Positions 32,952 through 63,747 are shown, counted from the stretch's first letter. The stretch is DNA of 64,000 nt from a virus (IMGVR_UViG_3300037781_000042:96001-160000), one strand, 5' to 3'. Translations and numbers: made by a program. The notes: generated by a model from the letters alone, not told the origin.

Positions 32952-33311
32952 ATGTATTTAGATTTCAAAAAGTTTTGTTTACAAGAAGATAGTTCAGCTG
33001 TTGCTTTTATGGGACCGGAAACAGACGGTTCTATTGTGTATCAAAGTTGGCACACCCCTTCCTTTCAAGTTGCGATTTTAAGTAGAGAAAGAGCAGCACA
33101 AATCTATGAGCCTAAATCAAATTTAAAACCAAGTCCTACTATAATTAAAAAAGGAGATGAAGTTGAAGTTTTTGATATGAACAAAAAGAAAAACATTCAT
33201 GGTAAGTTTATAACAGGAATAAAAGATCCTGAAGGAAATTATAAAACGGTTACTTTAAATGTAGATGGTAAGATAATTAAATTAGAAACTTCAGAAATAG
33301 AAAAAGCTTAA
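32952..33311 (+). CDS. Hypothetical late-region protein with possible cleavable leader
   Basis: MYLDFKKFCLQE N-terminus; first gene after the hairpin. Confidence 0.45.
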   Translation: MYLDFKKFCLQEDSSAVAFMGPETDGSIVYQSWHTPSFQVAILSRERAAQIYEPKSNLKPSPTIIKKGDEVEVFDMNKKKNIHGKFITGIKDPEGNYKTVTLNVDGKIIKLETSEIEKA

Positions 33312-33320
33312 GAATAACAA

Positions 33321-33797
33321 ATGACATTAAATTTAAATTGTGCTCCTACGGGAACTACAGATGGAAATAAGATAATTATAAGAGACGATCATTTTACTGT
33401 AATTAAAAATGGTAAAACAGTTACTACTGTTTCTTTAAAAGATTGTGTATGGGTTGCAGACAATGTTGTAAGTTATACAATTGATCTTCCTAAAAATTCA
33501 GCAGTTACTTTAGATTCTTCTACTATTTCTTCTGAAACAGATGAAGGAATGATTATGTTTGCTGTAATGGCTAAAAATTCAGTCTTTGCCGAAAAGGATT
33601 ATGAAAATGATAAATTATTTTATACAAGAGATAGTGATGATCCAACTCCGTTAGGACAGTTAAATGTAATTTCTGGAAGTACTGTAAATAGAATTACGGG
33701 AGTTTTTAAATTTTTTAACGGAACTCCTAATGCTGTTATTGATGATATAAATGATGGTCAATATGATGCTACTCTAGATATTTTAATAGCACTTTAA
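33321..33797 (+). CDS. Probable virion structural protein (beta-rich, acidic)
   Basis: Composition (T/D/N/V-rich) and position in the late module. Confidence 0.45.
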   Translation: MTLNLNCAPTGTTDGNKIIIRDDHFTVIKNGKTVTTVSLKDCVWVADNVVSYTIDLPKNSAVTLDSSTISSETDEGMIMFAVMAKNSVFAEKDYENDKLFYTRDSDDPTPLGQLNVISGSTVNRITGVFKFFNGTPNAVIDDINDGQYDATLDILIAL

Positions 33798-33819
33798 AAA
33801 TAGAAAAATAAAAATATAA

Positions 33820-36726: not shown

Positions 36727-36744
36727 AATTAAATAAATAGATAT

Positions 36745-36972
36745 ATGCATAAAGAAAAAAGAATAATAGAAAGTTTTATAGAATTTAATAAAATAAATGA
36801 AAATGTCGACAGTGATATAGAAAAGTTAAAGAAATTTAATACTCGCGAAAAGCGATATGAATTTATAAAAGATTTTTCTAAAGATAGATTAATAAATATA
36901 GCAGATAAACTTGATATAGATTATGAAGATCATGATGATTTAGAATCTAGAGTATTAAATTGCTTCGATTAG
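36745..36972 (+). CDS. Small protein with capsid-targeting-like leader
   Basis: MHKEKRIIESFIEFNKINE. Confidence 0.5.
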   Translation: MHKEKRIIESFIEFNKINENVDSDIEKLKKFNTREKRYEFIKDFSKDRLINIADKLDIDYEDHDDLESRVLNCFD

Positions 36973-36984
36973 GAAAAGTATTTA

Positions 36985-37425: not shown

Positions 37426-37439
37426 AAAAGAGAAAAATT

Positions 37440-37910
37440 ATGGAAAGAAAAAATTTAATGAATTTCGAAAACTTTAGAAATCATTTAAACGAAAATGAAG
37501 AAGGTACATTAGAAATAAATAATGTAGAAGAAGAAACTGAAGAAGAGTCTAAAGAAGATAAAAAGAAAGACAAAAAGAAAAAAGACAAGAAAGAAGATAA
37601 AAAATCTGATGGAGAAATAGCATCTGATGTTATGGAAGATGTAATGGAAGACATAGAAAAGAAATTTTCTTCTGATGCTACTTTAACATTTACTTCAAAA
37701 GAAATTACTTTAACTGTACCTGGAGAAGAAGAATCTTATTCATCTACTCAAAAATTAGATGATGATAAAGATATGGAGAAAGTAGTTAAAGAAATGATTA
37801 AAGATATTGAATCTCAAATGGAAGAAGAACCTTCTAAAGAACCAGAAGAAGGAGAAGATCCATCTACAGGAGATGATATTGATTTATCTAAGTTTTTAGA
37901 TGAAGAATAA
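37440..37910 (+). CDS. Highly charged protein with capsid-targeting-like leader (prohead-core-like)
   Basis: MERKNLMNFENFRNHLNE followed by E/K/D-rich low-complexity tracts. Confidence 0.5.
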   Translation: MERKNLMNFENFRNHLNENEEGTLEINNVEEETEEESKEDKKKDKKKKDKKEDKKSDGEIASDVMEDVMEDIEKKFSSDATLTFTSKEITLTVPGEEESYSSTQKLDDDKDMEKVVKEMIKDIESQMEEEPSKEPEEGEDPSTGDDIDLSKFLDEE

Positions 37911-37929
37911 AATTATAAATAGAAAAATA

Positions 37930-38226
37930 ATGAAAAAAGAAAATAGAATAGTAGAAAATTTTGAAAAATTTTCTAAAATAAATGAAGATAGAACCGATGA
38001 AATAACCCCAGGAAAAAAATATACTACATCAGATTATGTTTACGCAGTATCTTTAGATAATGTAGCAGATCAAAATTATGAAGTAACTATCGATAATGGG
38101 GAAGAATTTACAGTACTTCCTAAAGAAGAATGGTATTCTGAAAGGACTATTGCGGTAGATTATTATGGAAATAAAGTATTTGTAGATGGTAATTTTATTA
38201 AATATGAATGCTGGGAAAACAATTAG
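37930..38226 (+). CDS. Small protein with capsid-targeting-like leader (start revised from 37900)
   Basis: MKKENRIVENFEKFSKINE. Confidence 0.5.
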   Translation: MKKENRIVENFEKFSKINEDRTDEITPGKKYTTSDYVYAVSLDNVADQNYEVTIDNGEEFTVLPKEEWYSERTIAVDYYGNKVFVDGNFIKYECWENN

Positions 38227-38249
38227 AAAAATATAATATGAAAAACGAA

Positions 38250-38759
38250 ATGAAAAAAGAACAAAAACAAAGAATAGTAGAAACCTTTAAAGGATTTAAT
38301 GAAGCATTTGATCCTTTTCGCCGCACAAAAATGTATACAAATGCAGACAAAAAACGAGAAAGAGAAGAATTTAGTAAATATGATATTAATTCTATAAAAG
38401 AAAAATTGGAAAAAAATATAAGTTTTCTAAATTCACAAATTTCTAAAGTATTGGAAGCAGATGTTAGATTTATAGTTGAATACGACCCAGAAAAATTTGA
38501 ATTTTTACTTACTTCTAACAATCTTTTAACTTCTATGGATACTATAGGATATAATGTAAAAATGGTACTATTTGGTCATCTAAGTGCATTAGAATCAGGA
38601 TTTTTATTTTTTGAAACAAAAATAAATTATAACTTAGGAGAAGGAATAGAAACTAATTATTTAGAAGCTTTTCCAGGATTAGAAAGATTTATTGCATTTG
38701 GAGTTAATACTGAAACATGGAAATTCGAAAATGTTGATATTGAAGCAATAGATAAATAA
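38250..38759 (+). CDS. Protein with capsid-targeting-like leader (start uncertain: 38208, 38238 or 38250)
   Basis: MKKEQKQRIVETFKGFNE. Confidence 0.45.
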   Translation: MKKEQKQRIVETFKGFNEAFDPFRRTKMYTNADKKREREEFSKYDINSIKEKLEKNISFLNSQISKVLEADVRFIVEYDPEKFEFLLTSNNLLTSMDTIGYNVKMVLFGHLSALESGFLFFETKINYNLGEGIETNYLEAFPGLERFIAFGVNTETWKFENVDIEAIDK

Positions 38760-38792
38760 CAAAGAAAATATAAATATAAATTTAATTTATTT

Positions 38793-38828
38793 AAAAGTCA
38801 AAAGAAGTTTTACTTTTTTGACTTTTTT
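38793..38828 (+). terminator. Intrinsic terminator before tail sheath 1
   Basis: aaaagtcaaaagaagt-ttt-acttttttgactttt hairpin (one bulge) plus a T-run, followed by AAATATATAG at about 38837. Confidence 0.7.
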
Positions 38829-38881
38829 GCTTTTTTAAATATATAGACTATAAAGAAAATATAAATTTAAAATAAAAGACA

Positions 38882-42316: not shown

Positions 42317-42547
42317 ATGAAAAAAGAACAAAGAATAGTAGAAAGTTTTGAAGATTTTCAAAATCCTGAAGCAGCTCCAGTAGAAAATAAAATTTCTCCA
42401 GAAGCAAAAGAAAGAATGGAAAGTTTCGCAGATGCTGAAAATTTAACAGCTCTTGTTGATAGTGTAAGATTATTTGCTTCTGAAATGATGAACGACGGTT
42501 TTGAAAAAGAAGATGTAATGGAATACATTGAATCTATAATTGATTAA
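42317..42547 (+). CDS. Small acidic protein with capsid-targeting-like leader
   Basis: MKKEQRIVESFEDF; internal RMESF. Confidence 0.5.
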   Translation: MKKEQRIVESFEDFQNPEAAPVENKISPEAKERMESFADAENLTALVDSVRLFASEMMNDGFEKEDVMEYIESIID

Positions 42548-42560: not shown

Positions 42561-43037
42561 ATGAAAAAAGAACAAAAAATAGTCGAAAGTTTTCAAGATT
42601 ATTTCAAAAATAAAGAAGAAAACGTAAGTAAAATTCAAGAAGAAAAAAATTACGATCTTGATTCAAAAACAGGTCAATTAGAATTTTTAAATAACGAAAT
42701 GGATGCTCTTGAAAAAGAACTTGAATTTGAAAAAGATCCTGCGAAAAGAAAAGAGATTGAACAAGAAATGGAAGAAGTTGGTCAATCTATTAGAGATTTA
42801 GAAAATGAAGAAGACGAAAGTGTAGTAGAAAGTTTTGCTCCTCAAATAGATAAAAGACTTGAAAAAAGACAAAAGAAATCTTTAGAATTAAAAGAATATA
42901 AAGAACAGGCAATGACAATTATCCAAGGCAGAGATTATGATCTTTATGATTTCGAAGATAAAATGTATGATGCTTTTATGAGAGGAGATGATCCTAAACA
43001 ATTTGCTAGAGATTATGTATTAGATAACGAGTTATAA
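42561..43037 (+). CDS. Acidic coiled-coil protein with capsid-targeting-like leader
   Basis: MKKEQKIVESFQDYF; internal IQEE and VVESF. Confidence 0.5.
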   Translation: MKKEQKIVESFQDYFKNKEENVSKIQEEKNYDLDSKTGQLEFLNNEMDALEKELEFEKDPAKRKEIEQEMEEVGQSIRDLENEEDESVVESFAPQIDKRLEKRQKKSLELKEYKEQAMTIIQGRDYDLYDFEDKMYDAFMRGDDPKQFARDYVLDNEL

Positions 43038-43038
43038 A

Positions 43039-43479
43039 ATGAAATTAGATTTTTTTACTAATATGGAAAATACTGTAGAAAAGTTTTTAGAGCCACAATA
43101 TAATAATTTATTCGATATAGATTTATTTACAAATAATTCTAAGATAAATGATGAAATTTTTATAGAGCTTTTAAATGAGTCTGTAGTATCCGTAGATTTA
43201 GAACTTAAGAAATATAGATTTCATACAGAAATTTGTTTAAATGAAGGAACTAAATATATTTTAGAATTGTTTCATAACTTAAAACATAGATTTCCAAATC
43301 CTAAAGTAACACTATCTTTATTTAATAGAATTCATGAACCTTCTATTTCTATTGATTTTACAGAAGTTCAATTAGATGATATTGAATTTTTAAAATTTGA
43401 TTATAATGATAATTCTTTAACTAGGTTAAATTTAGTTTGGGGATTTAGAAAATACAAATTACGTTTACATAATGACTAA
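43039..43479 (+). CDS. Possible tail-tube-like protein
   Basis: EPQYNNLFDI N-terminal motif and L.F.Y......L.L.W.F C-terminus resemble gp19-type tubes; located between two sheath genes. Confidence 0.4.
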   Translation: MKLDFFTNMENTVEKFLEPQYNNLFDIDLFTNNSKINDEIFIELLNESVVSVDLELKKYRFHTEICLNEGTKYILELFHNLKHRFPNPKVTLSLFNRIHEPSISIDFTEVQLDDIEFLKFDYNDNSLTRLNLVWGFRKYKLRLHND

Positions 43480-43946
43480 ATTATATGAAAGCTTTGATGA
43501 ATATTCTTCTTATGCTGGAGAAGTAGAAGTAAATACTGATTTAGAAGATGGTATTTACAAAGGAACTATTTCAGGATGGATAGTTACTGTAGAAGGACAA
43601 GATTATAGAAGTACAACAGGCGGAGTTAGATGCAGTGGGTGTCCTATTGAAGCCTTTGTTAAAAATAATGTTTTAAGATTTAAACAATTAAGGTAAAGAA
43701 AAGCTTATGGAAAAGAAAGATAGATTATATGAATCGTATAACAGTTTTTGTACACCTCCTAATATAAATACGTTCACTACAGAACAAAAAGATGGAACAT
43801 ATTCAGGATATGTTTATGGAGATAAATTGTATCTCCAAGGATGGGATAAAATAGAAGAATATTCTTTAATGACAAATAGAAGAATTAAAGGAAAGAAAAA
43901 AATAATAGTTGAAGTAAAAGACGGTTCATTTACTTACAATGTATAA
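43472..43946 (+). CDS. Two small tandem paralogs (43472..43696 and 43707..43946) with LYES(F/Y) leaders
   Basis: MTKLYESFDEY...DGIYKGTISG versus MEKKDRLYESYNSF...DGTYSGYVYG. Confidence 0.45.
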
Positions 43947-44418
43947 AAATAAGATGGAACAGAAACCAGTAAAATTATTTGAAGCTTGGAGAAAATTTAA
44001 TGAAGATAACAATCAAATGTCTCCAGAAGAAATGTTATCTCAGATTATAATAGATAAAGGATATGATGAAGCTATTGAGGTAATAGAAGAAAATCCTAAA
44101 CAATACTTAAGTGATTCTGCTGTAAGATTTGTTTCTGATTATCATGTATCAGAATGGGAAATCACTAAAGAATATCAAGAAAAATATTCTATTCCAGTTG
44201 AAAGATATTCTGAAATTTTACAAAGACTAGATGATTTAGTTGAAAATGAAATGAATAAACCTAAAGAAGGAGAATGGTTTAATGAAAAGGTTAAAGATGT
44301 TTTAGGAACTGATGTAATTAAATTAGAAGAACATTATTTAGATAAAGTAGTTTTTGATGATTACAATCATTTAAAATACATCTTAGAAAGAAGAAAGAAA
44401 CAAAGCATTCATTTATAA
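43939..44418 (+). CDS. Protein with capsid-targeting-like leader
   Basis: KPVKLFEAWRKFNE near the N-terminus. Confidence 0.45.
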   Translation: MYKNKMEQKPVKLFEAWRKFNEDNNQMSPEEMLSQIIIDKGYDEAIEVIEENPKQYLSDSAVRFVSDYHVSEWEITKEYQEKYSIPVERYSEILQRLDDLVENEMNKPKEGEWFNEKVKDVLGTDVIKLEEHYLDKVVFDDYNHLKYILERRKKQSIHL

Positions 44419-48077: not shown

Positions 48078-48956
48078 ATGAATAAAGAAAAGCAACAAAA
48101 AGAAAATTATAATCAAAGTCTTAGAGGAAAGGATTGGTTAGGTATAGTTGTTGATATAGAAGATCCTTTACAAAGAGGAAGAGCTAAGATAAGAATATTT
48201 GAAAGATTTGATCAAAGAGCTCCTATTGACGATAAAGGAACTTATCCCGACGAACCTTTAAAACTAGAAGATTATCTAGATGAATCACATTTTTTACTTC
48301 CTAATAAAGCTTTGCCTTGGATGTTTCAAGTAAATTCTCAAATATTTGCAGGAGGCGAAAATCCAGGATCAGGTTCTTTTTGTACTCCTAAGTTAGGATC
48401 TTTGGTAAAAGTTAATTTTGTAAACGATGACATTTATTCCGGAGAATATCATACTGTTCATAAATTAAATGAAAAGATGATGGGAATAATTACTCGTGAA
48501 GATGGTGATTATGTAAATGCAAATGTTACTTTCTTTGATGAAGATGAAGATTATTGGATGCTTTATACAAAATCTATAGGACTTCAAGTATATCATAAAG
48601 GAAGTCAAATAGTAATTCGCCCAGACTCTTCTATATTCATAGAACATAAAGATACGGAATCTATGATAGAATTAAAAGGTCCTGATATTAAGATAATATC
48701 AAATAGAGATATTGACATAACTTCAGAAAATAGAATAACTGTTAATTCAAGTATAGTTAAAATAAATGGAGACAATACTTATTTAGGAAGCTCTCCTACT
48801 TTTTCTGCTGTTCATGGAGAACCTTTAATGAAATTACTTAAAGCTATGGCAGTAAATATAGACGGAAAAATGTTTGCTACCCCTGGCGTTACCACTACTG
48901 CCGTAGATGCAGCAGAAAATTTAATACTAGCACAAACCGTAAAAGTTGGATCATAA
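48078..48956 (+). CDS. Baseplate hub/spike, T4 gp5 N-terminal OB-fold / gpV-like, no lysozyme domain
   Basis: WLGIVVDIEDPLQRGRAKIRIF...LPW...GSF.TPKLGS.V.V.F..DDIYS..Y, followed by a beta-helix-like tail. Confidence 0.85.
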   Translation: MNKEKQQKENYNQSLRGKDWLGIVVDIEDPLQRGRAKIRIFERFDQRAPIDDKGTYPDEPLKLEDYLDESHFLLPNKALPWMFQVNSQIFAGGENPGSGSFCTPKLGSLVKVNFVNDDIYSGEYHTVHKLNEKMMGIITREDGDYVNANVTFFDEDEDYWMLYTKSIGLQVYHKGSQIVIRPDSSIFIEHKDTESMIELKGPDIKIISNRDIDITSENRITVNSSIVKINGDNTYLGSSPTFSAVHGEPLMKLLKAMAVNIDGKMFATPGVTTTAVDAAENLILAQTVKVGS

Positions 48957-49795
48957 TGAATAAAGAATTTAAGACATATAAAGAGTTTTTAAATGAGAGT
49001 CAGGAACTAGATCAATCTATATTTCCATTAGAAGAACCTGAAGAAGTAAAAGCGTTTATAGAAAAACATCTTGTAAATAAAAAATATAATGAAGAATATA
49101 GATTAACAGGAGATTGGAAAGTAGACGAAGAAGGATATTTTAGCACTCCTGGAAATTTAAATATATCTTCTATGAGAGCAGTTAAGAAAAAAATTCCATT
49201 TAAAATAAAAAATATAGGAGGAAATTTTAATTGTAGTCATAATGCTTTATATGATTTAGAAGGTCTTGAGAAGTTAGAACAAGTTGGTGGAAATTTTAAT
49301 TGCGGTTGGAACAATTTACACAATTTAAAAGAATTAAAAAATCTCGAATCAGTAGGGGGTTATTTTGAATGTCAGAGTAATAATAAATTAACTAGTTTAG
49401 AAGGGTTAAAAAAGCTTCAATTTGTTGGAAAAGAATTGCATTATTCATTATATTATTATTTTAATATAGTACATCTAGCACGAAATCATAGGAAGTTTAT
49501 TTATTATTTTAGTACCTTAATGTTCCCACAATTACATTCAAGGGTAAAAGTTTCTATTAAAAATCATTCATCATATTATGATACTTCATACGAAGATGGA
49601 ATAAAAACTTTTGTATCTTTGACACAAAACGAACAAAAGAAAATAATAACTGCTTTAAGTGAAGTAGATCTTCAAGCATATAGAAAACTTCTTTCTTATG
49701 CTGAAGAAAATAATATTAAGTTACCTTTAGATAAAGAAGTTTACAAATGGAATAAAGAAGCTAAAGATTTAGATGATACTGGATTAGAATTTTAA
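48956..49795 (+). CDS. Capped LRR protein (type I) with capsid-targeting-like leader
   Basis: MNKEFKTYKEFLNE; about 3.5 repeats of (V/I)GGxFxCxxNxLxxLxGLxxL; N- and C-caps shared with 54827..55732. Confidence 0.85.
   Translation: MNKEFKTYKEFLNESQELDQSIFPLEEPEEVKAFIEKHLVNKKYNEEYRLTGDWKVDEEGYFSTPGNLNISSMRAVKKKIPFKIKNIGGNFNCSHNALYDLEGLEKLEQVGGNFNCGWNNLHNLKELKNLESVGGYFECQSNNKLTSLEGLKKLQFVGKELHYSLYYYFNIVHLARNHRKFIYYFSTLMFPQLHSRVKVSIKNHSSYYDTSYEDGIKTFVSLTQNEQKKIITALSEVDLQAYRKLLSYAEENNIKLPLDKEVYKWNKEAKDLDDTGLEF
49681..49795. repeat. Long imperfect inverted repeat, left arm (partner 54827-54941)
   Basis: The 3' ends of the two type I LRR genes match at about 105 of 115 nt by eye, including a 29-nt perfect run aaatggaataaagaagctaaagatttaga. 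Confidence 0.85.
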
Positions 49796-52174: not shown

Positions 52175-53659
52175 TTATATATTGACACTAGATTTACGCA
52201 ATTCTTTTATTTGTTCTTCTAAATCACCTGGATTTTCTTCTACATTAATTCTACGAGCTTTAGGTAAAAAGTCTAATTTTTCTATTTCATTATAACTTAT
52301 ATCTAACATACCCGTTATTTCTTTTTGTAATCCTTCAATAGAAGTAAGTTGATTTCCAAATAATATTATATTTCCTTTTACTAGAGGAATTTCTTTTAAA
52401 GTTTTAAGTTTTGTTCTTTGAGCAAATAAAGACCCATTTACTTTTTTAATATCTTCGAACTTTTCTATTTTAGTAAATCCTACAGTTAAATCTCCATCTA
52501 CAATTTCTGGTCCACCTTTTAAAGAAGTTAAGTACTTATTATTTGAAAGATACAAATCTCCTACTTCCTGTGGGCAATGAAGTAAATTTATAATTTCAGT
52601 ATTTTGACAATCTAAATCTCCTACTTTTACTGGAATTCCTTCTAAAGTCTTTAATGGATTATAAGAACAGTCGTATTCGCGACCTACCTGTTTTGGTCCA
52701 TCTACCAAACTAGGCAAATTGTTATAAGAACAATCAAAAATTCCTTCTACTATTTCTGGAGATCCTTCTAAATTTTCTAATTTATTATTAGAGCAATTGA
52801 AATTTTCTGTAATTTTTCTGAATCTAATTCCTATATCTAATAAACTATTTAAATTTCTTCTAAATAAGTTTATGCTTCCATCATAATCATAAGTTCCATC
52901 TCCATTATCAGTTAACTTATCTTCATTAATTCCATATTTTGTAAGTGTACGATGTAATTGAGCTTGAGGAGAAGTTAATTCTCTAGGCATAAAAATATTT
53001 TCATCAAGTCCTAACTCGTTCATAACATAATGCATTCCTATTTCTGTATCATTTGCATTATAAACAAGTCTTCTTTCATCTTCATAAACAGCTACTGCAA
53101 TTTTGGAATAAGTTTTACTGTGTGATCTATTTTTATCTATAATGTAATAAAGAGTTACTCCTTGATTATAAACATAACTTTTAAAATAATTATCTTTTTT
53201 AGCAGCAGTACACCATCTAGTTCCTGATCCGTATTTACAACTAGATTCTATCGTTTGCGGAACAATAATTAAAAAATCATCATTATCTAATATTACTTCT
53301 ACCTCAGAAGTTTCTTTCTTTTCTTTATCTATTTCCTTTTTTCTTTTAAGTGCTTGTGTAATAAGCGAATCAAATTCTTCATAAGAAAGTCTTTGAATAT
53401 CTGCATTTATTAGATTTCTATTTTCTAATTCATGATAAGTCTCTATAGCAGAAGAAAGTTCAAATGGTTCTACTTTATCTTTTAAATGAAATTCAATTAA
53501 TTTTTCTACATATTTAAAATTAGGACTTGGATCCATCTTTACAAACTCGTCAAACGTTTCCTTATCTATTTTATTTGTATTTAAAAATCTTCTTTTAGCA
53601 CTTGCTTTAGATTCATTTAAACTTAAAAAGTCTCTATAATTTAAAAATTCTTTATTCAT
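52175..53659 (-). CDS. GSGTxWC-domain plus LRR protein (type II) with capsid-targeting-like leader
   Basis: MNKEFLNYRDFLSLNE-SKASAKRRF; DP.P..KY.EK; SCKYGSGTRWCT...YF..Y....LYYII; about 9 C-terminal LRRs (FxCSxNxLxxLxGxP). Confidence 0.8.
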   Translation of the reverse strand: MNKEFLNYRDFLSLNESKASAKRRFLNTNKIDKETFDEFVKMDPSPNFKYVEKLIEFHLKDKVEPFELSSAIETYHELENRNLINADIQRLSYEEFDSLITQALKRKKEIDKEKKETSEVEVILDNDDFLIIVPQTIESSCKYGSGTRWCTAAKKDNYFKSYVYNQGVTLYYIIDKNRSHSKTYSKIAVAVYEDERRLVYNANDTEIGMHYVMNELGLDENIFMPRELTSPQAQLHRTLTKYGINEDKLTDNGDGTYDYDGSINLFRRNLNSLLDIGIRFRKITENFNCSNNKLENLEGSPEIVEGIFDCSYNNLPSLVDGPKQVGREYDCSYNPLKTLEGIPVKVGDLDCQNTEIINLLHCPQEVGDLYLSNNKYLTSLKGGPEIVDGDLTVGFTKIEKFEDIKKVNGSLFAQRTKLKTLKEIPLVKGNIILFGNQLTSIEGLQKEITGMLDISYNEIEKLDFLPKARRINVEENPGDLEEQIKELRKSSVNI

Positions 53660-54826: not shown

Positions 54827-55732
54827 TTAAAATTCTAATCCTGTATCTTCTAAATCTTTAGCTTCTTTATTCCATTTATAAACTTCTTGATTTATAGATA
54901 ATTTAATATTATTTTCTTCTGAATAAGAAAGAAGTTTTCTACATGAGGGTAGATCCCAATCCATTAAATCTTCTATAATCTTCTTTTGTTCTTCTTCTGG
55001 TAAAGATACTAGATATTTTATTGAATCTTCGTATTTTTCTTGAGGTTCAACTTCTATATTTCCTTTAACTTCAAAAGTAAATTTTTTAGAAAGTATATTG
55101 TTACGATGACACCGGAAATCGCCACCTACAGACTTAAGATTTTCAAGACCTTTCAAACTGGTTAACTTGTTACCATGGCACGCAAAAGTACCATCTACAA
55201 ACTTAAGACTTTGAAAACCTTCTAAACTAGTTAACTTATTATAATGCAACCATAAATCCTCTCCTACAGACTTAAGATTCTCAAGCCCTTTTAAACCGGT
55301 TAATTTGTTATTATCACACCTGAAAGAGCCACCTACAAACTCAAGATTCTTAAGACCTTCTAAAGTAGTTAACTGGTTTTTAGAACATAAAAAATAATCA
55401 CGTACAGACTTAAGACTTTCTAAACCTTCTAAACTAGTTAATTTGTTATTAGAACAATCGAAATCGCCACCTACAGACTTAATTCTAAAAGGTAACTTAG
55501 TTAACTTCATTTCACTTAAATTTATATCCCCTGTACAAGAGACATACCCTTCTTCACCTATTGTCCAAGCACCAGATAAACGATGCTTCCTAGTTGGAGT
55601 CTTTTTCCCTTCTAGGTTTTCTTGGATCCATTTTTTAACTTCTCCAGGATCTTCTAAAGGAAACCTAGATTGATCGAAACCTTTGCTTTCGTTTATAAAC
55701 TCTGTATAATTTTTTATCTGTTTAGTTATCAA
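54827..55732 (-). CDS. Capped LRR protein (type I) with capsid-targeting-like leader
   Basis: MITKQIKNYTEFINE; 5.5 regular 22-aa LRRs (66-nt DNA period); C-cap RKLLSY.EENNIKL....VYKWNKEAKDL.DTGLEF shared with 48956..49795. Confidence 0.9.
   Translation of the reverse strand: MITKQIKNYTEFINESKGFDQSRFPLEDPGEVKKWIQENLEGKKTPTRKHRLSGAWTIGEEGYVSCTGDINLSEMKLTKLPFRIKSVGGDFDCSNNKLTSLEGLESLKSVRDYFLCSKNQLTTLEGLKNLEFVGGSFRCDNNKLTGLKGLENLKSVGEDLWLHYNKLTSLEGFQSLKFVDGTFACHGNKLTSLKGLENLKSVGGDFRCHRNNILSKKFTFEVKGNIEVEPQEKYEDSIKYLVSLPEEEQKKIIEDLMDWDLPSCRKLLSYSEENNIKLSINQEVYKWNKEAKDLEDTGLEF
55100..55480 (-). repeat. Coding tandem repeat with 66-nt period (LRR modules)
   Basis: Recurrent ctacagacttaag / ctacaaact(t/c)aag and gttaa(c/t)tt motifs every 66 nt. 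Confidence 0.9.
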
Positions 55733-56161: not shown

Positions 56162-57394
56162 TTATTTGGCATTAATACTCCCTAATACTGGAGCCCATCT
56201 TCTCTGTAAAAAATCATACATAGAAGTTTTCTCCTTGTTATTTTTCCAAGTTAACTTTTTCCTTAAAGTAACTCCTTTTAAATCATCAATTGCATCTTTA
56301 CCCAAAGAAGGATTGTTTTCTATTGTCAAGGTACCTGAAATGTTTTTCGGTAAACCTTTTAAACTTGTTAATTTTTTATTTCCTTCTATTTTAAAACTTT
56401 CAACACCTTTAAATTCTGAAAAATCTACGCTTTCTAAAGATTCTAGATCTGTATCAGAAATAACAATTGCTCCTGTTATTTTAAAATCTATATTCTTCAT
56501 TCTAGAAAAATCGATATAAGGAATATCAGAATTTACATAAAAATCTTTAAAATGAATCTGTTCAACGTTTTTTTCAACATTATGTCCTATTTTAGGATTA
56601 TGATTGTGAACTAAAATTTTTCTGCTTTCTCCTTCTGGTTCAGGTTTTTCTAAAAGCTTTTTAATTTTATCTGGTAAAGCATTCCACCAAATTCTTCTTT
56701 CTTCATTCATTCCAGTATCTAAAATAGGATTAAATGAAGAATCAGGTGCGTCCCAAAAATTAGAAAGCTGTCCACTATAATTTACTTGGGCAGCAACCTT
56801 ATATAAAGGATTTTTATCTTCACTCGAAACGGGTTGACTATCAAAAGCTTTGTTTGTTATAACATAAAAATGTTGTCCTTGTCTCCAAAAATAATCGTTC
56901 CAGTGTACTGGAGTTAAAAACGTAATACACCATTTAGTTCCTGATCCTATCTTTTTTGCTCCTGTCCAATTAAATACTAAATGACATCTCCAAGCATCGT
57001 CATCATAAACCATTACACTATTTTCAGAAATTTCTTTTTTCTTCTTTTGTGTATTAGAAATCTTTCCTCTAGCATCTATAATAACTTTTTCAAAGTCATC
57101 TATTTCAGAATATCTTTGAATGTCTTTATCGTTTCCACTTATTATATTTCTATTTGTTTTTTCGTGAAACTCTTCTATTAAATGACTAAGAGCCATTATT
57201 CTTTCCAGTTCCATGATTTGAGAATAATTTTCATGATCTTTCATTTGAAGAAAGAAGTCACACATTTTCTCAATATATTTTTTATTATTTGTTGGATCTG
57301 CAGATAAAAGCTGTGTAAAAGTAGAACTGTTGATTCTTCCAGTTTCTACAAATCTTTGTTCTGCTTGTTTTTTACCTTCATTAAGATGTTGCAT
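56162..57394 (-). CDS. GSGTxWC-domain plus short LRR protein (type II), paralog of 52175..53659
   Basis: MQHLNE-GKKQAEQRF; ADP...KKYIEK; KIGSGTKWCI; HFYVI; KVAA; C-terminal KKLTSLKGLPKNISG.L.I.NN. Confidence 0.8.
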   Translation of the reverse strand: MQHLNEGKKQAEQRFVETGRINSSTFTQLLSADPTNNKKYIEKMCDFFLQMKDHENYSQIMELERIMALSHLIEEFHEKTNRNIISGNDKDIQRYSEIDDFEKVIIDARGKISNTQKKKKEISENSVMVYDDDAWRCHLVFNWTGAKKIGSGTKWCITFLTPVHWNDYFWRQGQHFYVITNKAFDSQPVSSEDKNPLYKVAAQVNYSGQLSNFWDAPDSSFNPILDTGMNEERRIWWNALPDKIKKLLEKPEPEGESRKILVHNHNPKIGHNVEKNVEQIHFKDFYVNSDIPYIDFSRMKNIDFKITGAIVISDTDLESLESVDFSEFKGVESFKIEGNKKLTSLKGLPKNISGTLTIENNPSLGKDAIDDLKGVTLRKKLTWKNNKEKTSMYDFLQRRWAPVLGSINAK

Positions 57395-57433: not shown

Positions 57434-58102
57434 CTATTGTTTTACGTACCTGTCTAAGTATTCATAACAACATTTTAAAAACCATTCAAAAGTATCTGTT
57501 CCTTTAAATAATTTTAAATAAACATTCCATATTTGACCTTTAACATGATCTACAGGTTCTACTTCTTGTAAAGTTCTTTCTATTTTTTCTTTATTCCACT
57601 TCAATTGATTTTGGAACTTATTCATTTGTTCATTTGCATAAGCTCTTATTTCTTCAAAAGTAGAAAAATATTTAATATCATCTTCTAAATCAGAGCCTTC
57701 CATAAAAGGTCTTTTAGGATTTAAAGAATCTTGTTGATGTGTCATTTCATGAACTAAAGAATCTTCTAATCTAGACATCCAATTATCCCATTTAGTATCA
57801 TTTTCTTTTATAGAAAGAACATCTGGCTGTAGTAAAATATGTACTTGTTCATCTTTAGAATTATGAAATGCTGGACTTCCTTCTAATTCTGGAAAATCTT
57901 TGTAAGTATGAAATACTACGTCATATTTTTTAGTTACCATTGTTAAATATTCAGCAAGCTCCTCTAAAGAAGTTACTTTAGATTGAATAAAATCTTTAGA
58001 TCTAGCAACGTCTTTTTTAATTAATTCAATAGCATCCCATGGGATTGATGTTGATACTTTTTCATTTATAAATTCTTTATATGTCTTAAATTCTTTATTC
58101 AT
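57434..58102 (-). CDS. HExxH zinc metalloprotease-like (SprT/zincin) protein with capsid-targeting-like leader
   Basis: MNKEFKTYKEFINE; LVHEMTHQQD; downstream YFSTFEEIRAYANE supplies a plausible third ligand. Confidence 0.7.
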   Translation of the reverse strand: MNKEFKTYKEFINEKVSTSIPWDAIELIKKDVARSKDFIQSKVTSLEELAEYLTMVTKKYDVVFHTYKDFPELEGSPAFHNSKDEQVHILLQPDVLSIKENDTKWDNWMSRLEDSLVHEMTHQQDSLNPKRPFMEGSDLEDDIKYFSTFEEIRAYANEQMNKFQNQLKWNKEKIERTLQEVEPVDHVKGQIWNVYLKLFKGTDTFEWFLKCCYEYLDRYVKQ

Positions 58103-58469: not shown

Positions 58470-60443
58470 ATGAAAGATTCTCCTTGTAAAGATTGTAGTT
58501 GCGAGACTATTTATAGAAAAATTGAACGTCCTAAAACATACCAATTCGGGGTAGATAGTGACCAATGGATAAAATATTATGTTCCTGTAGATGATTATGC
58601 GGATGTAGCTGGTGCTGATTATTTTACATCTTATGAGGACATGGAAACAGATTACAATTCTACTGCTTTAGTAGCCTCTTTAGCAACTAAATTTTTATCT
58701 AATGGTCCGGGGTTTGATCCTTGGCACGATACTATAGAAGAAGCTGTAACATATTTAGATAGTTTTGATTATACGTTTGGAGGTTCATTTCCAGCAAATT
58801 CTTTTTATTGGACAATTATTTATGTAACTAATCCTAATTATGGAAAAGAATTACAATATGATTCTTCAGTATTAAGTTGGCCAATAAATCAAGATGCTAT
58901 TTGTTATGACGAATTAAAAGATCCTTTTTGGAAAATTAAATTTCCTATATGTGGATCGAATGGAAAAAAAGACAAAGACAATACTTTTAAATTTAAAGAT
59001 TGTGGTATCTGGAACGTAGAATATAGACTAAGACTTCGTCCTTTAGTATTTTTTGGTTGGCCAGAAGATGGAGATACTTGTGCAGATCATTGGTTAGAAT
59101 CGGGAGAAGAAGTAGATAATACTGAAAATAGAACTAAGCTATGGAATACGTATAGATTTTATAGTGCTATGAAAGAACAGGCAGGAGCAAAATATTTAGG
59201 AATGACTAAGCTTAGATTAGAAACTGGAATATTTAATGAAGATAGTCAAACACAAAAACCTATAGTTTGGTCAGAAGGAAAATATCCTCAGCCAGTAATT
59301 AAATATAAAGACTATTGGGATTCAAATTATGAAAATGGTAAATATCTTTATTATAAGGAATGCTCGCCTACTCAATGGGAAGGAATGCATCCTCATTTAA
59401 TATCTTCTGATATGGAAGAAACTGAAGTAGTTTATAAACAATTTAACTACAGTTTTACTTCAGGTTCTGTAAGTGAAGGATTATTTGAAGTAACTACAAA
59501 TGATTTTGATAATCCTGGCGATATTATTCTTTCTAAAAAATCACAACTAAAAGGAGATCAATATAATACAGCAGACATTCCTTTAAAATATAGGTTAGAT
59601 GAACCTGATAGATTTTTCAGTAACTGTTTAGAAAATCAATATGCTTCTCCAACAGGAGATGTTGAAATTGTACAAAGAGCTTTTATAAATGGTGAATGGA
59701 AAAAACTTCGTAAAGTTAGTTATAGTTTAATAGAAGTCGTAGAAAATCCTACTTCAGTTACTTTAGATGTAGATGTAGGAACAGTTATTAATTATGATGT
59801 AGGTAACATTGAAGATACTGATACATTTTATAATGGAACTACGTATAAAACAAAATATGAAATTTTAGTAAGTATAGAAAAAGTAACTAAATCTGTTCCT
59901 AAAATGGATTATGCAAACGTTACTATAGGAAATGTTACTGAATTAACAGATGATTTTGTTTATGAATTGGAAGGATTTACTCATGTAGATATGGATAAAC
60001 AAAAAGAAATTTCTATTTATCTTAAAGCTTTACCAGATTCTCCTAGCGGGCATCCTTTAGAACATGATACTGGATTTACAATGCCAGGTATTTCTTCTAT
60101 ACAACCAACTAAAAATGGATCTGACCCTGCAATTATAAATGAATCAGATACCATGCCTGAAAAATATTGGCCTTGGGGTGTACTTTCTGCAGATGAAAGA
60201 ACAGGCTATCAAGAACAATTTAAAAAAGTATACGAACCTTTACTTCCTATTCGTCCTGATCTTATTGATTTTGATGCTACTGGAACTGGGATAATAGATA
60301 ATGTTAGAGCAGGGCAAGCATATAGATGGGGTCACGTTCTTTCTGATGAAAATTGGATAGGAAGAAAAAATCCTTTCTGGTATATTATGATAGAAGAAGG
60401 ATGGATTAGATTAACTAAAACATGCGAAGGTTGTTGTGATTAA
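58470..60443 (+). CDS. Large hypothetical, probable virion protein with Cys-rich termini
   Basis: 657 aa; begins CKDCSC and ends CEGCCD; preceded by the ATATATAGTTT motif. Confidence 0.45.
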   Translation: MKDSPCKDCSCETIYRKIERPKTYQFGVDSDQWIKYYVPVDDYADVAGADYFTSYEDMETDYNSTALVASLATKFLSNGPGFDPWHDTIEEAVTYLDSFDYTFGGSFPANSFYWTIIYVTNPNYGKELQYDSSVLSWPINQDAICYDELKDPFWKIKFPICGSNGKKDKDNTFKFKDCGIWNVEYRLRLRPLVFFGWPEDGDTCADHWLESGEEVDNTENRTKLWNTYRFYSAMKEQAGAKYLGMTKLRLETGIFNEDSQTQKPIVWSEGKYPQPVIKYKDYWDSNYENGKYLYYKECSPTQWEGMHPHLISSDMEETEVVYKQFNYSFTSGSVSEGLFEVTTNDFDNPGDIILSKKSQLKGDQYNTADIPLKYRLDEPDRFFSNCLENQYASPTGDVEIVQRAFINGEWKKLRKVSYSLIEVVENPTSVTLDVDVGTVINYDVGNIEDTDTFYNGTTYKTKYEILVSIEKVTKSVPKMDYANVTIGNVTELTDDFVYELEGFTHVDMDKQKEISIYLKALPDSPSGHPLEHDTGFTMPGISSIQPTKNGSDPAIINESDTMPEKYWPWGVLSADERTGYQEQFKKVYEPLLPIRPDLIDFDATGTGIIDNVRAGQAYRWGHVLSDENWIGRKNPFWYIMIEEGWIRLTKTCEGCCD

Positions 60444-61372
60444 GCAGAACCAAATTTGTTAGGATCTAAACTTTTAAAATAATCTAAAGATTGCATTTCT
60501 ACCTTTTCAGGATCAAATTTAATATAAGGATCTTTTTCAGGTTCTGGAGCAGATGCTAAAGTTATAGTTTTTTGTTGATTTGTATTTCCTAAAATCTCTT
60601 CTTTTTTAACAGAAGCTAAATTAGCAGATCCTTTTAATGTAGTAGCTAAAGTAGCTATAGTTTTTTCTACATCTTTTAAAGGTTTAATTTTTCCTTTTCT
60701 TATCTCATTTTCTAATCTTTTAGCAGATCTTTTTCTAGCAGTCCCTTCTGATTCTCCTGTTCCAAAACCTACAACTCTATTTACATAATCTATATCAGTA
60801 AGTCTTTCTTTTTTAGCTCTTTCAAAATATTTTACTGCTATATCAAAAGCATATTCAGGATCAGCTGCTAACTCAGGATTATTTACTAAATCAACTCCTA
60901 ATTGCTTAGATGCTTTAGTATAATTGTGTTTTCCTGTAAGTTGAATTAAGCCACCTCCTCTATATTTATAACCATCTTCAAATTTGTCATTTCCTAAATC
61001 TTTTCTTTTTCCATAAAGAACTCCAAATAAATATTCTGGTCCTTTTTTTATAGCTGCTTGTGCATGTTGAATAGTAGGAAATTTAACTGCATTTTTTCTT
61101 TTACTCTTTTGCTGTTCTTTAGGGCCCCAAAGTTCCATTAATCTTTCAGCAGAATAATTAGTTAATTCTCTTTTAGGAATAAAACCGGATTCATGCTTTA
61201 TTTGTGCTAAAATGTTAGCTTGTGCTTTAGGATCTGTTATCCCTGCTTCAATTAATTTACTAAGTAAGATGTTCTTATTTAATTGCACTAACTTTTCTTG
61301 ATCAGATTTTGCAACCTTTCTCCAATTAAAAGTATCTTCGTTTAATTTATAATCTGTGTATTTTATAATCAT
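60440..61372 (-). CDS. Glycoside hydrolase family 19 (chitinase/endolysin-like) with cleavable leader
   Basis: ANILAQIKHESGF...LYG...LGN....DGYKYRGGGLIQLTGKHNY...LG.DLV.NPEL; N-terminus MIIKYTDYKLNE. Confidence 0.9.
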   Translation of the reverse strand: MIIKYTDYKLNEDTFNWRKVAKSDQEKLVQLNKNILLSKLIEAGITDPKAQANILAQIKHESGFIPKRELTNYSAERLMELWGPKEQQKSKRKNAVKFPTIQHAQAAIKKGPEYLFGVLYGKRKDLGNDKFEDGYKYRGGGLIQLTGKHNYTKASKQLGVDLVNNPELAADPEYAFDIAVKYFERAKKERLTDIDYVNRVVGFGTGESEGTARKRSAKRLENEIRKGKIKPLKDVEKTIATLATTLKGSANLASVKKEEILGNTNQQKTITLASAPEPEKDPYIKFDPEKVEMQSLDYFKSLDPNKFGSA

Positions 61373-61378
61373 ATTTTT

Positions 61379-61741
61379 TTATTTTACACCTACATCTAAA
61401 TATCTTTGTCCATTAATATAAACCGTTAATAATGCTATATCTCTTACTTGAGCTTGAAAGAACTGTAATTCATAATCTATATCAAACTTAGAATCATCAT
61501 AAACTAAAAATTGTCCAGTCTGATATTTAATGTTATTCAAAATAGTATATTTATTGTAATTCGTCTCAAATATCAAGCGTTCAAGATTAAGCCCCAGAGA
61601 AATTGCCTTTAAGACATCACCTTGATTTGTGAAAAAGAGCATCTTCAATTGTGATAGAAGTTGCTCTAATTCATCTCTTTCATCTACTCTTGTAGAGTCA
61701 AATGTAATATCATTATTTCCTTTAAAATAAAAATCTTTCAC
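61379..61741 (-). CDS. Baseplate wedge subunit, T4 gp25/gpW-like
   Basis: LLSQLKMLFFTNQGDVL....LGLNLERLIFE follows the I..IL.T..GE....P.FG..L...LFE pattern. Confidence 0.7.
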   Translation of the reverse strand: MKDFYFKGNNDITFDSTRVDERDELEQLLSQLKMLFFTNQGDVLKAISLGLNLERLIFETNYNKYTILNNIKYQTGQFLVYDDSKFDIDYELQFFQAQVRDIALLTVYINGQRYLDVGVK

Positions 61742-61752
61742 GAAAAATTATT

Positions 61753-63747
61753 TTATTTTATTTTATTTAATATTCCTAAGCCAGTTTCATCTGCAAATCT
61801 ATTTACAAGCTGTTTGAACGTTTTAATTTTTTTAGAATCTATTTCTGCTTCTAATTTTGGGATAGCAGCTTCAATTTTTGCGATATCTGCAGGAGGAGCT
61901 AATTTAATTACATCTGGTGATATTGAACCATTTAAAATTTCTTTTAACTGTTTTTGAGAAAATTTGTATTTTGAAATAACTTTTATTTGTAACCCATTAA
62001 AATAAGATTGTACCTGTTTAAAAGCTTCTCTTGTCCAATCTGAAATTCCTTCATTCATTTTATTATACTCCGTAAAATTTTTAAATCTTTTATTTTGATT
62101 ACTTTCGTTCATAACATCTTTTTTATTTTCTCTGAAATTTCTAAAAGATGATATTGTAGATTCTTCTAACATACTATCGGGAACTATGTATTTTTGATTT
62201 GTTGCTGTTGATGATTGTGCCATAGTAGTACCTTTAAATTCTCCAGGTCCTGTAAATTCTCGGGAAGGTTTTCCACTAGAATCTATAATACCTAAATCTT
62301 TTACTTTTTTATTAATTTGTTGTAATTCTGCTTCAGTTTCTTTTTTAGCTAATCCTACAAGTTTTTCAAATTCTTCTGCTTCTTGTTGTTTTGCAAAAAG
62401 CTCTTGATACGCAGGAATCATTTCAACTATATTTTTAATATACTTAACTATCGCTCCTACTAATTTTAATAAAGTTTGAGGAAATATTTCAATTGCAGAA
62501 AATACTTCTTCTATTAAATTATCAATTCCATCTACATATCCTCCCATAGTAGACATTACTTTTTCTTTCATTTGCGAAGTAGCATTACTTAATTTAGCAG
62601 AAATACTTTTAACAATATTTTCTAATCCAGTAAGAAAATCTAAAATAGAATAAGCTTTTCCTTTTTCTAATCCAGTTACTGATTTTTTACCTAAATTTTT
62701 GCCTGTAAAATAAACTAACATTGCAGCTAGAAAATGTTGACCAAAATGTATAGTAGCATGTTTATTAATAGAAATCATAAAAGCCTTTTTAAAACTTCTT
62801 TGAGCTATTCCAACCATTATTTTACTAAAAACTTCTTTTAAAGACATTGAAACTTGTCTTGCTACAGTTTCAGCAGCTTTCTTATATCCTGGGCCACCAA
62901 GTAAACCAAATGGAGCAACAGTAATACTTACCACCCCCATCAAGGCGTGCATCGTACCGTTTGAAAATACATCAATAGGATGTCCTAATCCTTTGTCAGC
63001 TTCTAATAATAAAGATTCATTTGCTCCTTTATAAAATTCATAGCTTCCATCTTCTTTTCTTACTACTCCATATTGTTTTCCTGATTTAATATCTTTTACG
63101 GCAAGAACTCCATCTATCTTAGTTTTCTTTGCTTTATTAGAATCAAATTCAATATCACCTAATTTTTGAATATTTTCTTCTCCACCAGAACCGTCGAATC
63201 TTTTAGCAGTTTCCTCTAAAGAACCCATATCTTTAGAAGCTTCTAAACATTCAAAAATTCCACCTGCAAGTAATCCTACTCCTCCAAGAAGAGCTAAAGT
63301 AATACTTACTGGTTTTAAAACTGGTAGAAAACTAGAAGCAAGAGCAAAAAATTCACAAAGAGCGCCAACACTTAAAAGAACTCCAGAAGCATTTCCTCTT
63401 CCAATAGCTTTTAAATTATCTACAATATGTCCAGCTGCACCTGCTGCATAACTAGGTAATTCTTTAACTGCTCCCCAAAGATCATTCCAAAAACCAGAAT
63501 CTTCATTAATAGATTCTTTTTCTAATAAAGTATTTGAAATTAGAGCTACGTTACCTCCTCCAAATACTAAAGTTTTTCCTTTTCCTGTATCGTATTTGTA
63601 AAGTTGATCTTTTGATTCTACTATCCATTTACAATTTTCTACTAAATGACTTTGTTCATCTTGAGATGATTCAAAAATCATTTTTAAGTTTTCAACAGAT
63701 TCAGAATATTGTTTTTGTCTTTCTTCTAAATTTATAAAGTTATTCAT
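61753..63747 (-). CDS. Large protein with Gly-rich hydrophobic helices and multiple (I/L/M)xE sites; candidate ejected membrane protein
   Basis: VLLSVGALCEFFALASSFLPVLKPVSITLALLGGVGLLAGGIF and ALMGVVSITVAPFGLLGG; internal SINE-D, LLLE-A, VMNE-S and KMNE-G. Confidence 0.5.
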   Translation of the reverse strand: MNNFINLEERQKQYSESVENLKMIFESSQDEQSHLVENCKWIVESKDQLYKYDTGKGKTLVFGGGNVALISNTLLEKESINEDSGFWNDLWGAVKELPSYAAGAAGHIVDNLKAIGRGNASGVLLSVGALCEFFALASSFLPVLKPVSITLALLGGVGLLAGGIFECLEASKDMGSLEETAKRFDGSGGEENIQKLGDIEFDSNKAKKTKIDGVLAVKDIKSGKQYGVVRKEDGSYEFYKGANESLLLEADKGLGHPIDVFSNGTMHALMGVVSITVAPFGLLGGPGYKKAAETVARQVSMSLKEVFSKIMVGIAQRSFKKAFMISINKHATIHFGQHFLAAMLVYFTGKNLGKKSVTGLEKGKAYSILDFLTGLENIVKSISAKLSNATSQMKEKVMSTMGGYVDGIDNLIEEVFSAIEIFPQTLLKLVGAIVKYIKNIVEMIPAYQELFAKQQEAEEFEKLVGLAKKETEAELQQINKKVKDLGIIDSSGKPSREFTGPGEFKGTTMAQSSTATNQKYIVPDSMLEESTISSFRNFRENKKDVMNESNQNKRFKNFTEYNKMNEGISDWTREAFKQVQSYFNGLQIKVISKYKFSQKQLKEILNGSISPDVIKLAPPADIAKIEAAIPKLEAEIDSKKIKTFKQLVNRFADETGLGILNKIK

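Follow-up and report, generated by a model that had tools for sequence, protein, structure and literature searches.

We analysed a 64,000-nt stretch of viral DNA (the window), bases 96,001-160,000 of one contig that measures 211,581 bp and has a GC content of 27% (IMGVR_UViG_3300037781_000042, an IMG/VR virus record with a CheckV completeness of 82%), in which genes between positions 32,952 and 63,747 encode proteins sharing a short N-terminal leader. Comparison with bacteriophage T4 and with related phages indicated that this shared peptide is, with high probability, a T4-type capsid-targeting, cleavable propeptide carried by a much enlarged and partly enzymatic cargo. The mature tagged proteins would be present in the phage heads with the tag removed, and the delivery of at least part of them into the host together with the DNA is plausible by analogy with T4, a step to which we give an even chance. 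The mechanism proposed is an enlarged variant of the known T4 mechanism and not a new kind. Coordinates refer to the window unless preceded by "genome", which denotes the contig; an arrow (↓) marks a predicted cut and Φ stands for L, I, V, M or F.

Identification of the shared N-terminal leader

The first-pass annotation of this DNA had listed 16 genes bearing the leader, and the N-termini that it quoted were all found in place. The corresponding features are given below, with the E-values obtained using a hidden Markov model (HMM) of the leader.

48956..49795, plus strand: leucine-rich repeat (LRR) protein, family A, 279 aa; leader MNKEFKTYKEFLNE↓ (nt 48956-48997); HMM 8e-7
57434..58102, minus strand: HEMTH-motif protein, 222 aa, candidate zincin; leader MNKEFKTYKEFINE↓
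52175..53659, minus strand: helical-domain and LRR protein, family B, 494 aa; leader MNKEFLNYRDFLSLNE↓
54827..55732, minus strand: LRR protein, family A, 301 aa, TTG start; leader (M)ITKQIKNYTEFINE↓; LRR_4 above cut-off
60440..61372, minus strand: glycoside hydrolase family 19 (GH19, lysozyme/chitinase-like), 310 aa; leader MIIKYTDYKLNE↓; Pfam GH19 2e-8
56162..57394, minus strand: family B paralogue, 410 aa; 6-residue remnant MQHLNE↓, with the cut site and without the aromatic pair
36745..36972, plus strand: ORFan, 75 aa; leader MHKEKRIIESFIEFNKINE↓; HMM 3e-7
37440..37910, plus strand: acidic/Lys-rich low-complexity protein, net charge -28; leader ...MNFENFRNHLNE↓; likely start 37458
37930..38226, plus strand: ORFan, 98 aa; leader MKKENRIVENFEKFSKINE↓; HMM 3e-7; longest open reading frame (ORF) from 37900
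38250..38759, plus strand: ORFan, 169 aa; leader MKKEQKQRIVETFKGFNE↓; HMM 0.006; longest ORF from 38208
42317..42547, plus strand: ORFan, 76 aa; leader-like MKKEQRIVESFEDFQNPE↓ without x-N-E; HMM 4e-4; late-type promoter motif 78 nt upstream
42561..43037, plus strand: ORFan, 158 aa, weak member; MKKEQKIVESFQDYFKNKE; HMM 0.024
43472..43696, plus strand: ORFan, 74 aa, weak member; MTKLYESFDE; HMM 0.012
43707..43946, plus strand: ORFan, 79 aa, weakest member and possible paralogue of 43472; MEKKDRLYESY; HMM 0.26
43954..44418, plus strand: ORFan, 154 aa; leader MEQKPVKLFEAWRKFNE↓; HMM 6e-7; longest ORF from 43939
32952..33311, plus strand: ORFan, 119 aa; MYLDFKKFCLQE↓, pattern-level only; directly 3' of a late-type promoter motif

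Ten of these were strong members, matching either the strict regular expression or the leader HMM at E < 0.01 (36745, 37440/37458, 37930, 38250, 43954 and 48956 on the plus strand; 53659, 55732, 58102 and 61372 on the minus strand). The 42317 protein was intermediate, while 42561, 43472, 43707, 32952 and the MQHLNE protein (57394, minus strand) were weak or matched at the pattern level only. In four cases (37440, 37900, 38208 and 43939) the motif does not stand at the very start of the longest ORF but a few residues into it; for these the true start is likely a nearer Met, leaving a short intergenic gap. The full set is larger than the earlier figure of about 16 tagged genes, with about 16 more outside the window.

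The tag consensus consists of M-(K/N)-K-E... followed by two aromatic residues three positions apart and then Φ-N-E, over a length of 12-21 residues, the commonest form in this genome being MNKEF-KTYKEF-LNE↓S. In the leader alignment Asn13 and Glu14 were invariant and preceded by L, I, V, M or F. All 21 strict members contain the aromatic pair [FYW]xx[FYW], as the strict pattern itself requires, and it is visible in the alignment of 19 of them.

All genome-wide counts were carried out on a set of 276 ORFs selected by a longest-ORF, non-overlap rule. The composite motif [FYW]xx[FYW].{0,6}[LIVMF]NE was found within the first 30 aa of 21 of the 276 ORFs, against about 1.0 expected from its internal rate (7-9 matches in about 61,000 aa), an N-terminal enrichment of about 20-fold. 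A profile built from the 21 strict leaders raised the number of N-termini to about 28, besides one clear internal site. As a non-circular control we used the pattern [FYW]xx[FYW][LIVM]xE, fixed beforehand from T4 mutagenesis, which gave 10 N-terminal matches, 9 in the scaffold repeats described below and 18 elsewhere, the N-terminal enrichment being significant. The T4 genome, subjected to the identical pipeline, returned 4 N-termini, IPII and IPIII among them. This phage, with its 21-32 tagged genes, thus has a much larger tagged set than T4, which has about 4, in line with what had been proposed. The same control scan also picked out a 54-aa T4 ORF outside the three named internal proteins (AF158101, 18966-19130, minus strand), which starts with MKTFKEFIKE↓D and resembles a capsid targeting sequence.

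The motif might have no targeting role at all and be a by-product of paralogy, of cassette recombination or of selection for A-rich 5' coding sequence in translation initiation. Starts of the M-K/N-K-E type are common in the genome, and the five MNKEFKTYKEF leaders are nearly identical in DNA and could have spread by recombination. However, once the leader was removed all but 8 of the tagged proteins were singletons in blastp at 1e-3, in agreement with the initial description of the bodies as largely unrelated. Moreover, the leader variants diverge in sequence and yet keep the same residue pattern, and the DNA 5' of the tagged genes is not shared among them, indicating that conservation acts at the protein level. 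Since, in addition, the motif is confined to late-type transcription units and orthologues from other phages have the same junction behind a leader that differs in sequence (see below), a by-product origin appears the least probable of the explanations considered.

A further complete leader, MNKENKIIESFDEFQNEKVNE, was noticed about 5 kb past the end of the window in a 195-aa ORF (genome 164857-165444, plus strand), where it begins from an internal Met at residue 114; a fusion of two genes or an erroneous start call would account for this ORF.

The prohead protease, the capsid protein and the scaffold repeats

A gp21-like protease gene was sought and located about 35 kb upstream of the window (genome 58895-60862), where it encodes a 655-aa protease-scaffold fusion. 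Its N-terminal part matched Peptidase_S77 (PF03420) with an E-value of 3e-16, above the curated cut-off, and showed 30% identity to T4 gp21 with conservation of the His-Pro and Ser-Ser-Arg motifs, which we take to hold the catalytic His and Ser of gp21. The N-terminus of the protease carries ...FLIE↓S, resembling the LIE-9 site of T4 gp21 (PMC9026906).

The capsid gene lies immediately 3' of the protease-scaffold gene, and the major capsid protein (MCP) was assigned to the T4 Gp23 family. Alignment of the MCP with those of phages PAU, PTm1 and MA9V-1 showed that Trp20 and Glu26 are invariant across the four phages, Glu26 occurring in the contexts VLKE↓T, KLNE↓S, QITE↓S and FINE↓A; additional Φ-N-E sites occur just N-terminal to a conserved Gly-rich segment. 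Φ-N-E is also about 4-fold over-represented in the protease-scaffold protein (7 sites) and very dense in its 1,347-aa MA9V-1 counterpart. The occurrence of this motif in both the capsid propeptide and the protease-scaffold protein makes it plausible that the protease of this clade is specific for Φ-x-E with Asn favoured at P2, in agreement with the (L/I)-x-E of T4.

Residues 290-475 of the fusion consist of a 14-residue tandem repeat, I-(E/Q)-Y-S-E-Y-(L/V/I)-A-E-N-V-N-K-(N/A), with nine copies in exact register and two degenerate ones. Every repeat fits the T4 tag pattern and terminates in (L/V/I)-A-E, and the length of the tag is about that of one repeat unit. The pattern Y-(S/T/A)-(E/N)-Y-(L/I/V)-(A/S)-E at 14-residue spacing was present in 2-10 copies in the protease-scaffold fusions of six IMG/VR relatives, so the repeats are no isolated accident but go back a long way in the clade. 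PAU encodes protease and scaffold in two separate genes, whereas PTm1 (565 aa) and MA9V-1 have them fused. From these likenesses we infer that the tag may enter the prohead core by co-assembly with the scaffold repeats, the protease then cutting both. A complex prediction that paired scaffold residues 340-480 with the N-terminal 40 residues encoded at 48956, run without controls, gave a score of 0.00, which counts neither for nor against such binding.

The tag as a separable module

The junction between leader and body was examined in three families. Family B includes four tandem leaderless paralogues outside the window (genome 176,447-182,882), whose start, M-SLKSARKKYL..., aligns with the stretch immediately after LNE↓ in the tagged paralogues (LNE↓SKASAKRRFL...); for the 53659 protein (minus strand), the leaderless paralogues begin at its predicted mature residue 1.

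The second family is that of a 301-aa tagged protein at genome 17,787, whose body corresponds to a Pol-beta-type nucleotidyltransferase. Twenty homologues were found in public metagenomes, with leaders that vary in length and sequence and nearly all finish in ...E↓GG(N)A(F), while one homologue begins M↓GGKA. An AlphaFold2 model built on the alignment of these 20 homologues returned a mean predicted local distance difference test (pLDDT) value of 89.5, values below 50 being confined to residues 1-15, that is, the leader. Foldseek matched the protein to Pol beta/lambda with an E-value of 1e-5, and residues G56, S57, D67, D69 and D131 were invariant, so that the predicted nucleotidyltransferase identity is well supported.

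Finally, the four closest homologues of the GH19 protein each carry a leader of their own (e.g. ...KFINE↓ and ...FTLNE↓), and more distant GH19 proteins have no leader and start straight at the catalytic domain. Untagged homologues beginning exactly at the predicted cut were thus present in two families, family B and the nucleotidyltransferase, and the alignments of all three independent families show the tag to be a separable module ending at that cut.

Promoter-like motifs and timing of expression

Two sharply defined classes of promoter-like motif were distinguished. The first, AATATATA(G/A), occurs at 37 sites on both strands, 33 of which lie within 100 nt upstream of an ORF, and precedes the genes for the protease-scaffold protein, the capsid protein, both tail sheaths and very large fibre-like proteins. 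One site is given here as an example.

38838..38845, plus strand: late-type promoter-like motif AATATATA(G), ahead of tail sheath 1

This first motif also precedes sheath 2 (44476), ORFs 32952 and 42317, and the minus-strand ORFs 57394 and 52144, the 57394 family B gene with its MQHLNE remnant standing directly 3' of it. The other class, (C/T)TTATATTACA...ATTCAATTAAC, also written TTTTCTTATATTACA-N5-ATTCAATTAAC, occurs at 12 sites, which precede groups of small ORFs and the leaderless family B array. Examples of promoter-like sites in the window are 32917, 38838, 42239, 44476 and 58458 (plus strand) and 57432 and 52183 (minus strand).

When each ORF was assigned to the nearest same-strand motif upstream, 31 tagged genes fell in the late-type class and 0 in the other, against 88 and 121 untagged genes (Fisher P = 3.7e-11). 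The earlier remark that the motif had not been noticed on early genes was thus borne out for all 31 assignable tagged genes, which make up about a quarter of the late-type ORFs (31/119). Packaging needs synthesis during prohead assembly, and copies made otherwise need no tag; the split between the two promoter classes therefore fits the targeting model.

Most genes of this phage lack a Shine-Dalgarno sequence, and AAGGAGAA is enriched upstream of a subset.

The cargo proteins

The 8 tagged proteins that were not singletons form one superfamily, made up of four LRR proteins of family A and four helical-domain proteins of family B, and a permissive phmmer comparison of the bodies added only marginal pairs. 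Most of the other tagged proteins are ORFans and therefore candidates for anti-defence or take-over functions; for the majority of these ORFans Pfam and PHROGs gave no match.

The first-pass annotation had described the cargo as more enzymatic, naming LRRs, a protease and a hydrolase, and this was borne out in part, also by the nucleotidyltransferase described above. LRR_4 and GH19 exceeded the Pfam cut-offs, and the 48956 protein gave weak LRR/Recep_L matches in the Pfam search, while the protease was found to depend on a HEMTH motif and weak fold matches. The 222-aa HEMTH protein (57434-58102) is a member of a phage-only family, and Atlas structural matches to relatives start at residue 18-19, past the leader. 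It can be called no more than a candidate protease, as it shows the HExxH motif, and its matches to ArdC/DarA-type zincin folds, with template modelling (TM) scores below 0.5, are leads only.

Related phages and their tags

Among phages in culture, the nearest relatives are Sphingomonas phage PAU, Chryseobacterium phages MA9V-1 and MA9V-2 and Tenacibaculum phage PTm1, and the kinship extends to Lak megaphages and other huge uncultured phages; all of these show 29-37% identity, the PAU MCP being 32% identical to that of this phage. No near-identical phage was present in the phage collection searched, and a single-sequence search of IMG/VR returned no close relative of the capsid protein, the nearest contigs showing 39% capsid identity. 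Since the actual host of PAU is a Sphingobacterium (PMC3738902), the host of this phage is likely a member of the Bacteroidota.

Each of the relatives inspected uses a tag variant of its own. PAU has about 10 genes starting with MK(T/S)(L/I)xxLYE(A/S/N)KLNE↓ around its portal, protease, scaffold and capsid genes, two of which, gp142 and gp154, were annotated by the depositors as 'internal capsid protein'. MA9V-1 has about 6 genes with MK(N/T)FFxF(I/V)NE↓, and in 60 IMG/VR loci many of the ORFs that neighbour the capsid gene begin with MKH(I/V)xxF(D/E)xF(I/L)NE↓ or even end their leader in ...KFIAE↓. A 238-kb relative scanned as a whole contained 20 strict tagged genes, and on another contig encoding the nucleotidyltransferase the neighbouring genes also bear leaders. 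A six-frame search of related contigs with a 19-position leader alignment proved insensitive and gave 1-3 matches. On the basis of these sequence variants the putative tag system is common to the whole clade, with this genome at its high end. In the literature we found no publication on such tags in this clade and no analysis of the tagged PAU genes. Neither for PAU nor for MA9V-1 did we find a proteome of the virion; the paper on MA9V-1 shows a sodium dodecyl sulphate-polyacrylamide gel (SDS-PAGE) only.

These data also bear on a rival explanation, in which the N-terminal peptide stays uncleaved and docks the proteins on some other virion part, for instance baseplate, tail or head fibres, like the conserved N-terminal anchors of multiple receptor-binding proteins. 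Many of the tagged genes do lie among tail genes (two sheaths and a gp5-like hub), and LRR domains could bind surfaces. This role is nevertheless very unlikely, as the tag always terminates in a protease-type Φ-x-E that is present also in the capsid propeptide and the scaffold, the untagged homologues begin exactly past that Glu, many tagged proteins are just 56-150 aa ORFans, the depositors named two tagged PAU proteins internal capsid proteins, and the tag is near-identical to the experimentally defined head-targeting sequence of T4.

Comparison with known systems

In T4 the internal proteins IPI, IPII and IPIII bear a capsid targeting sequence (CTS) that is removed by gp21 (Mullaney and Black 1996, reviewed in PMC9026906 and PMC3012670). 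The T4 sequence itself shows that IPII and IPIII start with MKTYQEFIAE↓A, as had been stated for IPIII, and that IPI starts with MKTFKEF...ITE↓A. Amber-suppressor scanning of the T4 sequence assigned targeting to residues 4 and 7 and processing to residues 8 and 10 (PMC9026906), and the same positions are kept in the leaders described here. In both systems a single N-terminal peptide of 10-20 residues, with aromatics three apart and then (L/I)-x-E, is placed on unrelated bodies, and the cores are near-identical (KTYKEF-L-N-E here and KTYQEF-I-A-E in T4); both genomes encode a gp21-family protease and a gp23-family capsid protein. Furthermore, T4 Alt sheds only 6 residues, at ITE-6 (PMC5694885), a precedent for the MQHLNE↓ of the 57394 protein, and the inhibition of GmrSD by IPI*, which the first-pass annotation had cited, is stated in PMC3012670.

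The two systems also differ. Asn is strongly preferred at P2 here, and the cargo, mostly acidic and without homology to IPI-III, contrasts with the small, basic, DNA-associated T4 proteins and includes LRR, GH19, nucleotidyltransferase and HExxH proteins, one of its families being encoded also as leaderless copies behind the other promoter class. In addition, the protease is fused to a scaffold of tag-like 14-residue repeats, and the host is probably a member of the Bacteroidota.

Hypervariable internal-protein loci of T-even phages likewise combine CTS-like leaders with diverse ORFs (PMC3012670 ref. 23; PMC9026906 section 3.1), and here too near-identical leader DNA could serve cassette exchange; the tagged genes of this only distantly related genome are, however, far more numerous and spread across the whole late region. 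In phiKZ-like giant phages (phiKZ, 201phi2-1 and SPN3US) a gp21-related protease processes head and ejection proteins (PMC5694885, PMC10052503), cleaving many of the proteins inside the head after Glu. The propeptides of these phages are thought to direct proteins into the prohead, and a large cargo is ejected into the host. However, those propeptides are mostly longer than 100 residues and share no common short tag, as opposed to leaders of 12-21 aa here, the cleavage motif is (S/A/G)-x-E (PMC5694885) instead of Φ-N-E with L/I/V/M/F at P3, and no gp22-like scaffold is recognised. The same architecture is seen in gp142 and gp154 of PAU, a phage of the same clade (GenBank JQ362498), whose MK(S/T)(L/I)xxLYE(N/A)KLNE↓A has the same L-N-E cut site, with Leu-Tyr in place of the aromatic pair, in a phage with about 10 such genes and with protease and scaffold as separate genes.

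Proposed mechanism and its assessment

According to the mechanism that we propose, the tagged proteins would be made late, alongside the head proteins, and their tag would dock on the prohead core built by the protease-scaffold fusion, whose 14-residue repeats have the same pattern (Y-S-E-Y-L/V/I-A-E). The gp21-family serine protease would then cut after Glu, freeing the mature cargo inside the head, trimming the capsid protein and chopping the scaffold. Part of the cargo would probably exit with the DNA at infection, the candidates being the LRR proteins, the GH19 wall hydrolase, the nucleotidyltransferase and the HExxH protein. Degradation or expulsion may instead await the small, very acidic tagged proteins, if these belong to the core.

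Several points weigh against this interpretation. The phage is uncultured and known here from its genome sequence alone, and no proteome was found. Six of the 16 members listed earlier are not strong matches, and the M-K/N-K-E starts, being frequent in this AT-rich genome, carry no weight by themselves. The labels late and early are drawn from the genes that follow the two motifs. A detectable homology between tag and scaffold had to be dropped, since an HMM of the nine repeats retrieved no leader (best unrelated match E 0.18), and the likeness of the two is therefore at the pattern level only. Lastly, the predicted mature cargo is mostly acidic, with a median isoelectric point (pI) of 5.0, many proteins at a net charge of -10 to -34 and a pI above 8.5 in 4 of 32; acidic proteins suit packed DNA poorly, and the T4 internal proteins are basic.

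The acidity of the cargo favours a related explanation, in which the tag does target the prohead and the tagged proteins are mainly core or scaffold accessories like T4 gp67 and gp68, degraded or expelled when the DNA is packaged, with no injected arsenal. The small tagged proteins are mostly very acidic ORFans, several tagged proteins hold further Φ-N-E sites, and the 37440 protein has a Glu/Asp/Lys-rich low complexity similar in composition to T4 gp67. This composition and the acidic cargo suggest that some of the small, very acidic tagged proteins are probably core components, degraded or expelled, and not delivered effectors. As a description of the whole set, though, the accessory explanation is unlikely, as GH19, LRR and a nucleotidyltransferase with an intact catalytic motif show the larger tagged proteins to be enzymes or binding modules with a defined fold, and the leaderless copies of family B behind the other promoter class point to a role inside the infected cell. 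The reading as a cleavable targeting propeptide on an enlarged, partly enzymatic cargo agreed with all the sequence-level tests applied and is preferred.

A broader version of this reading would hold that PAU-like Bacteroidota jumbo phages possess a general, tag-addressed delivery system, in which the products of about a quarter of the late-type genes are routed into the head by a mimic of a single scaffold repeat, to be set free there by the protease fused to the scaffold. At least the LRR, nucleotidyltransferase, GH19 and HExxH proteins would be injected as pre-made effectors, the matching leaderless copies following later from the other promoter class. We put it forward only tentatively, considering it somewhat doubtful; if true, it would explain the action of the T4 targeting sequence as co-assembly with scaffold repeats.

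If the tags act as in T4, an ancient sorting signal would span the T4 superfamily as far as Bacteroidota jumbo phages, and would there be scaled up five- to eight-fold. The tags would offer a sequence-only route to listing candidate head-packaged, and possibly injected, proteins in uncultured phages, while the tagged late-type and untagged other-class copies of one family would constitute a natural control for the effect of packaging. The tag-like scaffold repeats suggest a mode of tag recognition, a matter unsettled even for T4, and a short tag with its matching protease could serve protein packaging in Bacteroidota phages.

Other features of the genome

An additional leader-like sequence was detected inside a large ORF near the end of the window.

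62050..62112, minus strand: internal leader-like segment, MNESNQNKRFKNFTEYNKMNE↓, aa 546-566 of the 664-aa ORF 61753-63747; HMM 5e-5

This ORF (minus strand) has no match in Pfam or PHROGs and contains Gly/Ala-rich, membrane-like stretches. The segment is possibly a nested start or a site at which the protein is processed internally or at its C-terminal end, and the product, so processed, may be one that is ejected or inserts into membranes.

The window also encodes two very large tail sheath paralogues of 1,118 and 1,187 aa (38882-42238 and 44512-48075, plus strand), which lie 2 kb apart with small tagged ORFans between them and each have their own late-type promoter motif; they matched phrog_34521 at 9e-91 and 2e-75. 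In a different region of the contig, a 407-aa ORF (genome 76901-78124, plus strand) beginning with MKQNKAYKLRIYPNKEQ resembles a TnpB/OrfB-type transposon protein, a likeness recognised by eye only. Finally, 5' of the protease gene (genome 53285-58813) and behind a late-type promoter motif lies the gene for a 1,842-aa protein with hundreds of residues of collagen-like GNQGNQGWQG repeats, which may be a head or tail fibre, PTm1 and PAU also having unusual fibres.

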